Made by a program: the position numbers and the translations under genes. A DNA stretch of 64,000 nucleotides from Candidatus Bathyarchaeota archaeon. Its GTDB lineage: Archaea; Thermoproteota; Bathyarchaeia; Bathyarchaeales; Bathycorpusculaceae. Below the pieces are notes generated by a model. The model did not search any database. It was not told the DNA's origin and saw only the letters and a program-made list of their open reading frames with translations. Shown in pieces: positions 4,740-25,298 of the stretch (its first letter is position 1; the number at the start of each line of letters is the position of its first letter). Location: NCBI GenBank assembly GCA_963772455.1, contig CAVYXJ010000007.1, forward strand, positions 32,001-96,000, written 5' to 3'.

Positions 4740-5930
4740 CTAAGCCCGTCCTTTTTCTGCTTGCAAACTCGCAGATAATTCCTTCTCTAATTCACCTGCA
4801 GGTATGGCTGGCAGGGAAATCCTTGTTGTTCGTCCACGCGTCTCTGCTGTTGTAACCTCAGTTTTTAAAATACCAAGCTTCGAGAGATACTGTGCGTAAT
4901 TCCAAATTTGGGTGTGACCGTTGGGTTTCTCATCGAATTCTTCGCAGGCAACCGCGTAGTCTTTTTCAGTTTCAGATAAAGAAACGTAAGCCTGCTCGTT
5001 TTCCTTGAAGAAACGTGCGACTGCAAGCAGGAACAATTTTTCATGCAGACCCAGAGAAGCCAGCTCGCTTCGACGTAAACTAGGAATAATACTTGAAACC
5101 GCTATCCGCACAAATTCTGGTCCCACACAACCGGCATCTTCAGCATCTGCGTATTTGCCCGATCGCCACAACAACTCAATCCCAAACCTAGCGTTCCCTG
5201 TTTCAGAGAAAGCCAACTCCGAAATCAAATCAACAACATCCTCAGGCACTGTGCCAAGTTCGAAAGCCATTGCAACGCGGTCATTTAGGATGTCAACAAG
5301 CTGAGATTTGCCATACCGATCTAAACAAATGATGCTGCGTTGCAGAGTGCTTCTGGCGCTCTCATCAAGCTGCTCAATCGCTTTCAAGTCACGCATAATA
5401 AAAATAAACGATAACCGCTGGGGTTTGCCTTGCCGCATCTCCTGCAACCGCGTCAATTTGTAAACAGCATCTGAACCTTCCTTCTCAATTAAAGCATCAA
5501 ACTCGTCAAGAGTAAGAATCATTTGTGCGTTTTCTTCATCCAAAACCTGCATCAATGTTCCAAGGATTTCTTCAGAGCCATATCCTCGGGATGGATAGTT
5601 TGGGCGAAAAACAGTGACAGCTCGATGCAAGATTGGCGAGAGACTCCCACGGTACTCGCGGCAATTAACGTGGACATAACGGAATTTCATGCCCCGCTTG
5701 TTGGCTTCGGATGTGATGCTTGAGCCAAAGTGTTGAGCAAGAGCAGTTTTTCCTGTTCCAACATCACCAGTCAAAATGACTCGCTGAGCCATTTTTTCAG
5801 GACACCTCAAGATAAAGTTGAAGAATTCCGATAGGAGTCGATGTTGCGTTTCGCGATGAGGCAACTTGTGTGGAATGTAGTTTATGTCAAGTTTGGATTC
5901 GTCTTTGAAAACGCTTTGTTGCGGAGCCAC
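4740..5930 (-). CDS. cdc6: Orc1/Cdc6 replication initiator
   Basis: YIPHKLPHRE, Walker A GDVGTGKT, HVNC, Walker B LDEFD, GNAR sensor, C-terminal wHTH with RGRT. Confidence 0.95.
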   Translation of the reverse strand: MAPQQSVFKDESKLDINYIPHKLPHRETQHRLLSEFFNFILRCPEKMAQRVILTGDVGTGKTALAQHFGSSITSEANKRGMKFRYVHVNCREYRGSLSPILHRAVTVFRPNYPSRGYGSEEILGTLMQVLDEENAQMILTLDEFDALIEKEGSDAVYKLTRLQEMRQGKPQRLSFIFIMRDLKAIEQLDESARSTLQRSIICLDRYGKSQLVDILNDRVAMAFELGTVPEDVVDLISELAFSETGNARFGIELLWRSGKYADAEDAGCVGPEFVRIAVSSIIPSLRRSELASLGLHEKLFLLAVARFFKENEQAYVSLSETEKDYAVACEEFDEKPNGHTQIWNYAQYLSKLGILKTEVTTAETRGRTTRISLPAIPAGELEKELSASLQAEKGRA

Positions 5931-22758: not shown

Positions 22759-23073
22759 CTAATATCTCGCGATTTTGTAACGAGTTCTACCCATTTGACG
22801 CTGCCGTTTCTCTTGAGCCTCGGTCAATTGAGTTTTACCCGTCTTGACCTCGTAAGTTGTGGGTTCACCAACTTTGTTTCCAAAAAAATCCCGTTTTTGA
22901 ACAACAAAATCTCCATCTTTACGAGTCTTTTGACAATCGTTTCCCATCATTGTTTGATCAAATGCAAAGCGGTCTTTTGCAAGGTTGCCTTTGGCGCGGT
23001 TGCTAGAAAGATTAAATCTTTTTGAAACATTTCCCAGATTTATCGGGTCGTCCTTTAAAGTTCTTTTTACCAT
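22759..23073 (-). CDS. Small PD-(D/E)XK-type nuclease-like protein
   Basis: GDFVV...YEVKTG..QLTEAQ matches the D...EVK and LT..Q pattern of VRR-NUC/HJR-like nucleases. Confidence 0.6.
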   Translation of the reverse strand: MVKRTLKDDPINLGNVSKRFNLSSNRAKGNLAKDRFAFDQTMMGNDCQKTRKDGDFVVQKRDFFGNKVGEPTTYEVKTGKTQLTEAQEKRQRQMGRTRYKIARY

Positions 23074-23133
23074 ACAGAACCTTAGTTTGAAAATACAACG
23101 AGATATTATTTCAACGTTTAGTAAAAAAAAACA

Positions 23134-24027
23134 TCAGTTATTCTTGCGTTTAATTATTTTGATAATTGCTTCTTTTGCGAGATTTTCGGTCTTTTCAGTA
23201 ATAACAGGAAGCAGGTTTAGGTCGGTTTCATATCCTATACTGTTCCTTTCGTTTTGAATTGCTATTTTTGTTGTTGTTCCTGAACCTAAGAATGGATCAA
23301 GTACAAGTTCGCGTTTCACGCTAAACATTCGGATTAGTCTGTGTGCGATTTCTTCAGGATAAGCAGCGGTTCTACGCTCTAAATCGTTTGTTGTCTGTCG
23401 CGTACCTTTGAGTGACCAGATTTGGCTGAACCATTCATCACGTTCTTTTTTGGTGAAAATGCTTTCATATCGTAAAGCATCTTTTGGTGGGAATTTTCGG
23501 AGTTTTCCCTTCCTAAATAACAAAATAAACTCGCAATCAATTGTAATATAAGCGTTTGGTGGAAGGAAACCTGAGCCCAAAAAAGCGCCTTTACCCTTGT
23601 ACATTGGCTTGTTAGTGGGTTTTTTCCAAAGGATATAGGGTAAAGTGGTGAAGCCGATTTTTTCGCACATCTCTGTGATTCGGGAGTGGTTGGGATAGAG
23701 CTGGAATTTGCCGTTTATAGTTCGGGTGGCGTCTCCAATGTTTATGCATGCAATGCCGCCGTCGACTAGGACCCGGTAGGTTTCAGCCCAAACCTTGGCT
23801 AAATAAGCATGCATTGCGGTATAGATTTGATGCACAACATCCTCCTCGCTGATTGCAGCCAATTCACCGAATAATTCTGCAATTCTTGGATCAGCGTTGC
23901 AAAATAGTTCGTCCCACATTGATATCATGGGGTAAGGCGGCGAAGTCACCATTAACTGGACACTTCTGTCCTCAAGTTCACTCATTCGCTGGCTGTTGCC
24001 AAAGATAATTGTATGCTGAGTCTGCAT
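23134..24027 (-). CDS. Site-specific DNA methyltransferase (N4-C/N6-A, beta class)
   Basis: Motif IV VTSPPY near the N-terminus and motif I DPFLGSGTT near the C-terminus. Confidence 0.92.
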   Translation of the reverse strand: MQTQHTIIFGNSQRMSELEDRSVQLMVTSPPYPMISMWDELFCNADPRIAELFGELAAISEEDVVHQIYTAMHAYLAKVWAETYRVLVDGGIACINIGDATRTINGKFQLYPNHSRITEMCEKIGFTTLPYILWKKPTNKPMYKGKGAFLGSGFLPPNAYITIDCEFILLFRKGKLRKFPPKDALRYESIFTKKERDEWFSQIWSLKGTRQTTNDLERRTAAYPEEIAHRLIRMFSVKRELVLDPFLGSGTTTKIAIQNERNSIGYETDLNLLPVITEKTENLAKEAIIKIIKRKNN

Positions 24028-24143
24028 TGCTTCTATGTATCATCGATTGGTGCTTTTACTTTTGCGGTAATATGAATCCAAAGAGAATCCGTTATCACCT
24101 GTTTTCGAAGCAGTTTTTATAAGATAATTTAAATCCGTTACTA

Positions 24144-24815
24144 TTGATGAAAATACCTTATCAGCGAATAATTTACCATCTACCACTTAAAGAACTCAAC
24201 GAAGATGCCGCAATACTTTTAGGACTTCATGCTGGTGACGGATGGCTTTCAGATAAATGGGGAATAAGTTGTGGTCTAAATGATGAAGAAATGCTTGCAA
24301 AAATAATTGAACTTGTTAGAAACGTCTTAGGAGTTGAACCAAACACACCTGTTAATTGTCCTTCAGGTAAAGCTGTGATGATTAGGAGTGGTCAACCTCA
24401 GGCGTTAGAGTTCTTTCGAAATTATGGTTTCCCACAGGGGAGAAAAGCGGGAAAGGTTACTATCCCAAAACAAATCCTTGAATCGAGTGATGAAAGAATA
24501 CATAGAGCTTTTTTATGCGGCCTATTCAGTACAGATGGATGCTTTAGTTTTCAAATAAACCGGGGACCGAGAGTTGAAATCCAAGTTAAAAGCAAAGATC
24601 TCAGAGATGGGTTCACAAATTTAGCTGATAAATTAGAATTCAAATTCCGAACATATGAGTATATGCCACCTAACGGTAAAAATAAATCGCCTCTACACGT
24701 CGCATATACAACTCGGTCGCAACAGGTAATTCGTTGGATGGAGAAGATAGGGTCGATTAAAGATGCGCATAAAATAAGGTATAACAAGTGGAAAATGTTA
24801 AATGACCGAAGTTAA
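24144..24815 (+). CDS. Free-standing double-motif LAGLIDADG endonuclease
   Basis: LLGLHAGDG and FLCGLFSTDG motifs plus GRKA.KVTIP; no intein splicing termini. Confidence 0.85.
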   Translation: MMKIPYQRIIYHLPLKELNEDAAILLGLHAGDGWLSDKWGISCGLNDEEMLAKIIELVRNVLGVEPNTPVNCPSGKAVMIRSGQPQALEFFRNYGFPQGRKAGKVTIPKQILESSDERIHRAFLCGLFSTDGCFSFQINRGPRVEIQVKSKDLRDGFTNLADKLEFKFRTYEYMPPNGKNKSPLHVAYTTRSQQVIRWMEKIGSIKDAHKIRYNKWKMLNDRS

Positions 24816-24835
24816 TTGTTTTTAGCGGTTATTAT

Positions 24836-24986
24836 GCTACGGTAACCAAGCTAGGTCAAAGGTGAAAGAATACGCATTTTGCGTGTTCCACTAAGGACTC
24901 AAGATCTCGACGCTTTGACTCAAGCGCCCAAATGGGAAATCCTTTCCCTCAGGGGTTCGCAGGTTCAAATCCTGCCCGTAGCACCA
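24836..24986 (+). tRNA. tRNA-Leu(CAA) with two introns (24867-24894 at 28/29; 24904-24938 at 37/38), CCA encoded
   Basis: Acceptor GCTACGG/CCGTAGC-A-CCA, T-arm GCAGG-TTCAAAT-CCTGC and a long variable arm. Removing both introns gives AAGGA-CT-CAA-GA-TCCTT. Both introns have BHB-like junctions. Confidence 0.9.
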
Positions 24987-25046: not shown

Positions 25047-25298
25047 TTGGTGACTTGGTTGGTCAGGATAGTTTTCACAGAAGATGAAAGGAGAAACCTC
25101 AAAGTCATAGCTTTGGAACTCTTGGAAATCCGCAAGCTCGTCGTAGAACTTACTGAAACATTGGTAAACGCAAACGACAAAAAACTAATGAAGATGCTTA
25201 ATGGAAGCCAAGATGATCTCAAAGAAAACAAAGTAGATACCTACAAAGAAACTTTGGAAAGACAAATAGACATAGCGGAAAAAGAATTTCGCTCATAG
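25047..25298 (+). CDS. Hypothetical protein, possibly an orphan antitoxin-like protein
   Basis: ETLVNANDKKLMKMLNGSQDDLKENKV resembles the ETL.IL.D.ELM..I..S..D...GRV tail of archaeal RelB/Phd-like antitoxins. Confidence 0.45.
   Translation: MVTWLVRIVFTEDERRNLKVIALELLEIRKLVVELTETLVNANDKKLMKMLNGSQDDLKENKVDTYKETLERQIDIAEKEFRS

Follow-up and report, generated by a model that had tools for sequence, protein, structure and literature searches.

A free-standing LAGLIDADG gene upstream of a two-intron tRNA-Leu gene in a bathyarchaeon: a probable member of a selfish-element family resident at archaeal tRNA-Leu genes

The window analysed here is a stretch of 64,000 nucleotides from a Candidatus Bathyarchaeota archaeon (assembly GCA_963772455.1, contig CAVYXJ010000007.1, positions 32,001 to 96,000 of the forward strand), and its feature of interest is a LAGLIDADG gene that ends 20 nt before a tRNA-Leu(CAA) gene of the same strand, which is itself interrupted by two introns. 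This open reading frame (ORF) is probably a free-standing homing endonuclease gene (HEG) for a single-chain protein with two motifs and a predicted nuclease activity. Moreover, it likely belongs to a family of selfish elements living at the tRNA-Leu(UUR) genes of Bathyarchaeia and Nitrososphaerota and specialised on that locus.

The origin and spread of archaeal tRNA introns, split tRNA genes and tRNA fragments is an open question, and the models found in print invoke integrases or RNA-level events, not homing nucleases. The locus described here gives a testable DNA-level link between mobile nucleases and the broken-up tRNA genes of archaea, the enzyme family keeping to tRNA-Leu genes across two archaeal classes. 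It is also a compact and assayable system, consisting of one enzyme of 222 aa and of an allele series, within one genus, with and without the gene and with and without the first tRNA intron.

Residence of the family at tRNA-Leu genes

Relatives of the protein were found in Bathyarchaeia and Nitrososphaerales, as judged by source names (125 at E ≤ 0.001 among 226 candidates). Their surroundings were examined in 102 loci, namely 22 contigs with a full-length match from a collection of one genome per species and 80 metagenome contigs; a twenty-third species locus (L025), holding only a 40-aa fragment, was left out. The contig ends at the gene in four loci, and each of the other 98 has a tRNA-Leu(CAA) or tRNA-Leu(UAA) gene, or a fragment of one, within about 140 nt, a proportion that overstates the number of independent lineages, the metagenome loci being partly redundant. 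These 98 loci, from Bathyarchaeia and Nitrososphaerota, comprise 80 tandem loci, 15 loci of a sister type (HEG-2) and three composite ones.

In the tandem loci no more than about 90 nt separate the tRNA start from the end of the endonuclease match, and the distance from the stop codon, in the loci where it was read, is 15-52 nt; the anticodon is CAA in Bathyarchaeia and UAA in most of the Nitrososphaerota-like loci. According to a heuristic parsing of introns, with six loci read by eye, 75 of the 80 tandem tRNAs carry an insert between the D loop and the anticodon loop and five have an intron of the 37/38 region only; none is free of introns. A maximum-likelihood tree of 68 distinct proteins contains a HEG-2 group (support 99/87), a Nitrososphaerota-like group (98/91) and a group of Bathyarchaeia tandem copies (100/97). 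Within the latter, copies that precede a tRNA of body type B (the type of the window) are interspersed with copies preceding type A, and well-supported branches force at least three switches between the two contexts. In loci of the L063 type the change of tRNA context falls exactly at a promoter box, composed of a B recognition element (BRE) and a TATA box, and the insertion point lies at the 5' edge of this box in type A, type B and Nitrososphaerota loci.

Several homologues of Nitrososphaerota type (P0079, P0081, P0100, P0103 and P0111) bear an extra N-terminal region of about 50-80 aa, partly conserved, for which no match was found in Pfam.

The sister lineage shows a different arrangement. 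The 15 HEG-2 loci have an intact tRNA-Leu(CAA) on the opposite strand, 125-136 nt upstream, and the 3' end of the endonuclease gene abuts an antisense 5' fragment of a tRNA-Leu of a second body type; in the three composite loci two endonuclease genes converge on the tRNA fragment. The fragment of both kinds of loci retains the promoter, the acceptor strand, the D arm and a D-loop intron, and it ends within a few bases of the stop codon of the gene. Of the 17 loci read by eye, 16 have this end at about nt 27-31 of the tRNA, and in L017 it falls at about nt 23/24. The intact tRNA-Leu(CAA) beside HEG-2 is of the other body type and is intron-free in seven of these loci. Since the sister lineage is inserted in a tRNA-Leu at about nt 27-31, beside an intact copy, the tRNA body is a plausible target of these enzymes. 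The layout of the fragments corresponds to what a one-ended repair of a break near nt 30 would leave, and other histories could also have produced it.

The composite loci (L080, L082 and L091) are ordered as a tandem-type gene, a tRNA-Leu 5' fragment ending near nt 29, an antisense sister-type gene and an intact tRNA-Leu(CAA) of the other body type. A reading of the sister-type loci as split tRNA genes, or as tRNA genes with a giant intron, was rejected: no matching 3' half was found in L017, L019 and L021, and the neighbouring tRNA is complete alone. Two further irregular tRNA sequences were noted near endonuclease genes. In genome G494 (L154) a stray tRNA-Leu 3' fragment, from the anticodon loop to the acceptor end, comes directly after the intact linked tRNA-Leu(CAA), about 40-170 nt past it in the reverse-complement view. 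In L017, an additional gene resembling tRNA-Leu(CAA), degenerate and with a 37/38 intron, lies at about 5491-5597 (minus strand), some 0.8 kb away from the endonuclease gene; its acceptor and D stems are mismatched, and its Rfam score of 21.7 bits is under the cut-off.

The endonuclease protein

The ATG at 24147 agrees with the N-termini of the homologues and gives a protein of 222 aa; a longer reading from a TTG at 24144 (24144..24815, plus strand) would give 223 aa. The protein matches the Pfam family LAGLIDADG_3 at residues 120-202 (E 6.9e-12; 45.9 bits for a cut-off of 22.5), this profile covering only the second half, and the Hom_end family stays under its cut-off. A first reading of the window, made from the sequence only, had described an intact gene with two motifs and both catalytic Asp residues. 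An alignment of 51 homologues bears this out, D31 being invariant and D130 conserved in at least 90%.

The AlphaFold model, built on the homologue alignment, has a pLDDT of 92.1 and a pTM of 0.90. It consists of two pseudo-symmetric alpha-beta-beta-alpha-beta-beta-alpha halves, the motif helices spanning residues 19-31 and 116-130 and each being followed by beta hairpins. In a Foldseek search of the Protein Data Bank (PDB), 140 chains matched at E ≤ 0.001, with known LAGLIDADG enzymes on top, the best matches being the TliVMA intein endonuclease, PI-SceI, I-Tsp061I and I-DmoI. The sequence profile search of the PDB agrees with this, the nearest entries being intein and archaeal intron endonucleases.

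The free-standing nature of the gene, also proposed earlier, is confirmed by its context: it has its own start and an intergenic upstream region, a complete tRNA follows it, and no surrounding extein or intron was found. It is present in one copy in the genome, as seen by a tblastn search for paralogues. No longer protein (390-2000 aa) holding the domain was found at E ≤ 1e-10, which is weak evidence in the same direction.

Sporadic carriage, decay and selection

The gene occurs in four of the 120 genomes of the window's genus, in two of them decayed, and in ten of the 97 genomes of a Nitrososphaerota family. Two further weak matches in the search of the 120 genomes were rejected as other LAGLIDADG proteins. 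All four genus copies lie at one site, between a divergently oriented methylase gene and tRNA-Leu(CAA), and the empty site could be read in eight relatives (G071, G011, G059, G001, G002, G113, G115 and G080). Presence or absence at a single site, with empty sites in relatives, is the pattern that marks a homing element.

The copies of genomes G067 and G118 contain stop codons and frameshifts, and the gene is broken in 7 of the 22 loci from species genomes. Within the type A clade, about 550 nt of the gene are missing from G196, and all that remains of it in G196, G257, G145, G195 and G186 is a 3' remnant beside the tRNA, corresponding to the tail that overlaps the promoter. Thus, for a cycle of invasion, decay and loss, broken copies and deletion remnants were found, and no recent invasion was seen. 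The intact copies are under strong purifying selection, with dN/dS values of 0.06-0.11 in the 19 pairs with usable dS. Against the copy of L003, at a saturated synonymous distance, the window's gene still gives 0.06, a value that requires long-lasting selection on the protein.

The tRNA of the window, with both introns, is 97-99% identical to those of G113, G118 and G002 (comparison of L031-L033), the flanks of which are only 73-77% identical, and only 90% identical to that of G067, the flanks of which are the closest. This suggests, from the sequences compared, an exchange of tRNA alleles between species.

In addition to the redundancy of the metagenome loci, several observations weigh against a selfish homing family. 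Some of the broken copies stand in assemblies where indel errors are possible. The strong purifying selection would equally be expected of a protein useful to the host, and WhiA and the bI3 maturase, both domesticated, are among the Foldseek matches with similar scores, lower in the list. Furthermore, the identity of the genus copies to the window's gene equals that of their flanks (gene/flank 0.78/0.83, 0.74/0.74 and 0.77/0.77), so that vertical descent with loss fits as well as homing; the four genus copies look old and no recent transfer is seen. Strictly vertical inheritance had been named in advance as a sign against mobility, and within the genus the joint divergence of gene and flanks goes in that direction.

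Organization of the locus

The flank shared with relatives lacking the HEG stops at 24069, so that the left junction of the inserted segment is 24069/24070, and G067 has an identical one. A TATA-like run (24114-24123) lies upstream of the gene. At the empty site, the flank ending at 24069 is followed by a stretch of 52 nt with a native BRE/TATA box about 40 nt before the tRNA. In the window, a BRE/TATA-like box occupies the final codons of the gene and is as far from the tRNA 5' end as the native box is at the empty site, and a nearly identical box precedes tRNA-Met(CAT) in the same genome. The overlap of the C-terminal tail with the promoter box is also found in type A and Nitrososphaerota loci, and type A tRNA genes lacking the HEG keep the box without the gene. 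By position and homology, 24790-24806 is therefore likely to be the tRNA promoter, in agreement with the earlier proposal of a tRNA promoter located inside the gene. In this unusual overlap the last codons of a presumed selfish gene would double as the promoter of its companion tRNA, which would explain why the tail of the gene outlives the gene. The 20-nt leader between stop codon and tRNA, a spacing also reported at first reading, is conserved among the HEG-bearing alleles of the genus and unlike the leader of the alleles without the gene.

The neighbouring minus-strand region (22759-24027) contains an N4/N6 DNA methylase gene (Pfam 5e-38) and, just downstream of it, an ORF of 104 aa. This pair is conserved beside the tRNA in relatives lacking the HEG and is therefore not part of the element. 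No restriction enzyme partnering the methylase was identified, and no family matched the ORFs 22759..23073 and 25047..25298. Neither a group I intron nor another RNA family was found between 24000 and 25300 at E ≤ 10, and a search of the whole window for RNA families at gathering scores found none around the gene.

In the search for RNA evidence no sequencing run held more than 0.23 of the sampled words, and four runs were examined. One of them (X1; marked as DNA, with a query, and consulted as contigs only) contains two pieces of the gene at ≥99% identity. The contigs from RNA libraries cover only 24893-24986 and derive from relatives without intron 1 and with other flanks, with intron 2 retained; for this reason they are uninformative on expression, co-transcription and splicing.

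The introns of tRNA-Leu(CAA)

The tRNA gene was missed by ARAGORN, both in its default mode and with introns allowed, and by Rfam, so that genomes of this kind would be annotated without a tRNA-Leu(CAA). Removal of both introns leaves a product of 88 nt that ARAGORN calls tRNA-Leu(caa). The introns are inserted at 28/29 and 37/38, 9 nt apart in the mature RNA, as had been claimed from the sequence, and neither of them holds an ORF.

In the minimum free energy (MFE) fold intron 1 forms a relaxed bulge-helix-bulge with an outer helix GGUC/GACU, a 3x3 loop, a 4-bp helix GGUG/CACU, a 3-nt bulge AAA and a distal helix of 8-9 bp, the latter showing compensatory changes among 22 distinct sequences of the genus (RNAalifold). 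A shift of its boundaries by 1-2 nt to the left gives an identical product. For intron 2, a central helix CUCA/UGGG with bulges AGA and AAA was recognised by inspection only, the MFE fold of the isolated arm lacking it. Natural alleles confirm the boundaries, since they carry the predicted junctions: the exact junction without intron 1 occurs in 80 genomes of the genus, and L017 and L021, where the gene is present, have a tRNA with neither intron and with the junction predicted for intron 2. At the 37/38 site, at least two unrelated families of intron sequences occur in different genomes of the genus.

Only about eight of the approximately 47 tRNA genes of the window's genome have introns, which makes a tRNA with two of them unusual here. 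Three of the five tRNA-Leu isoacceptors have an intron in the 5' half, namely UAA (D loop), CAG (29/30) and CAA (28/29), and most of the other intron-bearing tRNA genes have one at the canonical site only. Outside the window, tRNA-Leu(CAG) (G000:C5:12224-12336) has a single non-canonical intron at 29/30 and is mis-called as tRNA-Thr by ARAGORN. The two copies of tRNA-Leu(UAA) (G000:C10:435039-435161, and a second on the minus strand of C17) each contain an intron of about 35 nt in the D loop, and neither ARAGORN nor Rfam detects them. Another tRNA gene of 151-154 nt, also outside the window (G000:C11:76299-76452), probably has two introns; ARAGORN reads it as Arg cct with an intron of 62 nt, which looks unreliable, and its Rfam score is 38 bits.

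Mechanism of maintenance and alternative explanations

For the homing family favoured here, the protein would cut alleles of the tRNA-Leu locus that lack the HEG, and repair of the break from the carrier allele would copy the gene. Insertion upstream of the promoter, with the box kept intact, would be harmless to the tRNA. Two regions are candidates for the cut: the tRNA body around the D arm and anticodon stem, as the best one, and the promoter-proximal insertion point, as the alternative. Breaks in the tRNA body are suggested by the fragments of the sister lineage, by the stray 3' fragment of L154 and by the high identity of tRNA alleles between genomes with divergent flanks.

The first candidate leads to collaborative homing, a sub-case proposed in its general form by the sequence-only reading, in which the enzyme would cut an intron-1-less tRNA-Leu(CAA) near nt 28-31 and intron 1 would protect the carrier and be co-converted with the gene. 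This reading is possible but less likely than not. Its first support comes from a census of the genus, in which 80 genomes have the tRNA without intron 1 and 25 have intron 1 by the exact pattern, with G100 and G133 added by alignment, and none has both. Intron 1 is present in all four carriers and in 23 of the 103 non-carriers (one-sided Fisher test, p 0.003, the genomes being related). If only the 14 closest genomes are taken, with the identity of the upstream gene as a rough proxy of relatedness, it occurs in 3/3 carriers and 1/11 non-carriers (p 0.011). In the Nitrososphaerota family, 32 of the 97 genomes matched the tRNA-Leu(UAA) pattern, 24 with and eight without a D-loop insert. Nine of its ten carriers have the gene beside an insert-bearing UAA tRNA, and the tenth (G494) has it beside a tRNA-Leu(CAA) with inserts at about 31/32 and 37/38; the D-loop intron is thus found in 9/9 linked carriers and 14/22 non-carriers (p 0.04).

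Other observations point in the same direction. Around the site, carrier and intron-less alleles have the same exon sequence, which leaves the intron as the only thing that could protect the carrier there. The sister lineage is inserted at about nt 27-31, the leader proper to the carriers extends up to the tRNA, as a break further to the right would leave it, and the inserts between D loop and anticodon loop in 75/80 tandem tRNAs agree with such a target, as do the 5'-half introns of 3/5 tRNA-Leu isoacceptors in a genome where most other intron-bearing tRNAs have canonical introns only.

Nevertheless, intron 1 lies about 50 nt from the gene and the genomes are not independent, so that hitchhiking or shared descent would give an equal table. 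Moreover, 23 genomes of the genus have intron 1 with the native promoter and neither the gene nor a remnant of it, and the type A lineage is uninformative, its D-loop insert being present in 28/28 matched genomes with or without the gene. Five tandem loci have an intron of the 37/38 region only. Intron 2 appears to be present in the genus irrespective of the gene, as deduced for about 30 unread genomes from the spacing of matches; if a 37/38 intron were sufficient for protection, all the genus alleles would already be immune through it. An association between gene and intron was seen across genomes, in a form that linkage and kinship could also produce, and the idea of intron immunity is partly supported: the association speaks for it, and the 23 intron-1 alleles without the gene and the five tandem loci without a 5'-half intron speak against it. 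As for an endonuclease gene beside an intron-less tRNA-Leu, a finding that was expected to contradict the idea, none was seen among the 80 tandem loci, and the tRNA beside HEG-2 is often intron-free.

Extended to the family, collaborative homing would mean that these enzymes attack tRNA-Leu(UUR) bodies near the D arm and anticodon stem and that the introns that split the target (D loop, 28/29 and about 31/32) persist and spread, the sister lineage having destroyed one tRNA-Leu(CAA) at nt 27-31 and travelling with a differently sequenced intact copy. This wider proposal, drawn from the comparison of loci, is possible, with the balance against it. If true, it would be the first DNA-level mechanism of mobility and selection for the protein-spliced tRNA introns of archaea and for the fragmentation of their tRNA genes, and the sister lineage would represent a natural cut-and-replace arrangement.

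With the second candidate, the homing endonuclease would recognise the insertion point next to the promoter, a site that is lost once the gene is inserted, and the tRNA introns would be incidental. This explanation is a doubtful one, even if it would fit the usual situation of canonical LAGLIDADG genes, which lie within their own recognition site. It accounts well for the constant insertion point at the 5' edge of the box, shared by type A, type B and Nitrososphaerota loci, and for the switch of context exactly at the box in L063-type loci. However, what lies to the left of the box varies between lineages, and in the genus carriers and non-carriers have different haplotypes over the entire leader as well. 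Similar boxes also precede other tRNA genes, and for this reason the box cannot explain the exclusive residence at tRNA-Leu.

A third explanation, which is improbable, is that of a domesticated LAGLIDADG protein with a role in the host, either as a regulator of tRNA-Leu transcription, similar to WhiA, or as a helper in the folding or splicing of the pre-tRNA, similar to the bI3 maturase. The dN/dS of 0.06-0.11, the divergence of the gene together with its flanks and the presence of WhiA and bI3 among the fold matches would all agree with it, as would the constant position beside tRNA-Leu (in the tandem form always an intron-bearing one) and the extra N-terminal region of some Nitrososphaerota homologues, without a Pfam match. 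Such a protein would not, however, be expected in 4/120 and 10/97 genomes only, in copies repeatedly pseudogenised or deleted, while the same tRNA and introns exist without it in 23 genomes; moreover, both catalytic Asp residues are kept. Finally, it is very unlikely that the gene is what an earlier invasion left behind, inactive and not yet decayed: the two broken copies among the four of the genus and the lack of signs of recent transfer would fit, but its frame is intact, all the conserved residues are present and the dN/dS of 0.06 against a copy at saturated synonymous distance requires a long-lasting selection on the protein.

Comparison with known systems

By analogy, the nearest described system is that of F-CphI and psbA in cyanophage S-PM2, in which, according to PMC6083498 (citing Zeng, Bonocora and Shub 2009), the endonuclease gene lies next to an intron-containing psbA, the intron blocks self-cleavage and the intron-less homologue is cut. 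In both cases a free-standing endonuclease gene adjoins a gene with an ORF-less intron. The phage system combines a nuclease of the Endo VII type with a self-splicing group I intron, and its target codes for a protein, whereas here the host is a cellular archaeon, the protein is a LAGLIDADG one, the introns are protein-spliced bulge-helix-bulge introns and the target would be a tRNA gene. T4 SegB is a free-standing GIY-YIG endonuclease of the T4 tRNA gene cluster, described in PMC2330249 as promoting inheritance of the tRNA region. It shares with the present gene the position of a free-standing HEG among tRNA genes, and it differs in its phage host, nuclease family, lack of introns and lack of a family-wide fidelity to one tRNA identity.

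With I-DmoI and I-Tsp061I the protein shares the single-chain fold with two motifs, a size of about 180-220 aa (TM 0.62-0.73, target-normalised), the archaeal hosts and the link to stable-RNA genes with bulge-helix-bulge introns; the sequence identity is only 15-17%, and the genes for both enzymes lie inside the intron that they mobilise, in contrast with the present one, situated outside the RNA gene and upstream of its promoter. The TliVMA and PhoVMA inteins and PI-SceI, of the LAGLIDADG_3 type, are the closest by profile (E 1e-13) and by fold (TMq 0.65-0.69). Unlike those inteins, the present protein has no splicing (Hint) domain and no surrounding host protein. The transcription factor WhiA and the bI3 maturase resemble the present protein in their fold and in that it, too, may act on a nucleic acid encoded close by. 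They are not known to retain catalytic residues or cleavage activity, and they differ from the present gene, which keeps both motif Asp residues and is sporadic and decaying, not fixed.

The gain of archaeal tRNA introns and the split tRNA genes of Caldiarchaeum have been modelled by means of integrases, and the word homing is absent from that work (PMC3293823). That model resembles the present locus in three respects: the mobile element is bound to a tRNA gene, fragments of tRNA genes accompany an intact copy, and close relatives differ in the presence or absence of introns. It relies on site-specific integrases and att sites at tRNA ends, whereas here a nuclease gene is found and no integrase. 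Archaeal group I and bulge-helix-bulge introns with LAGLIDADG ORFs have been reported in rRNA genes, with 39/39 of the archaeal group I introns of PMC6125680 in rRNA genes. No description of a LAGLIDADG gene linked to archaeal tRNA-Leu was found in the literature covered, which was incomplete, and the words homing, LAGLIDADG and Bathyarch are all absent from a 2026 preprint on Asgard tRNA introns.

Coordinates of the features

The features of the locus are collected in Table 1; residues of the protein are numbered according to the 222-aa reading.

Table 1. Features of the LAGLIDADG and tRNA-Leu(CAA) locus, in positions of the window
Feature	Position	Strand	Basis or remark
Left end of the inserted segment, upstream region of the gene	24070..24146	+	Flank shared with relatives lacking the HEG stops at 24069
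LAGLIDADG homing endonuclease gene (probable)	24147..24815	+	222 aa from ATG; dN/dS, Pfam, motifs, model
Motif 1	24216-24242	+	Asp D31, codon 24237-24239
Motif 2	24510-24542	+	Asp D130, codon 24534-24536
BRE/TATA-like box in the last codons of the gene	24790..24806	+	-46..-30 from the tRNA; likely tRNA promoter
Spacer, tRNA 5' leader (20 nt)	24816..24835	+	Stop codon ends at 24815, tRNA starts at 24836
tRNA-Leu(CAA) gene	24836..24986	+	CCA encoded
Exon 1: acceptor 5' strand, D arm, nt 26-28	24836..24866	+	
Intron 1 (28 nt), non-canonical, 28/29	24867..24894	+	MFE fold, covariation, natural intron-less alleles
Exon 2 (9 nt): tRNA nt 29-37 with anticodon CAA	24895..24903	+	
Intron 2 (35 nt), canonical, 37/38	24904..24938	+	Read by coordinates
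Exon 3: nt 38-76, long variable arm, T arm, acceptor 3' strand, CCA	24939..24986	+

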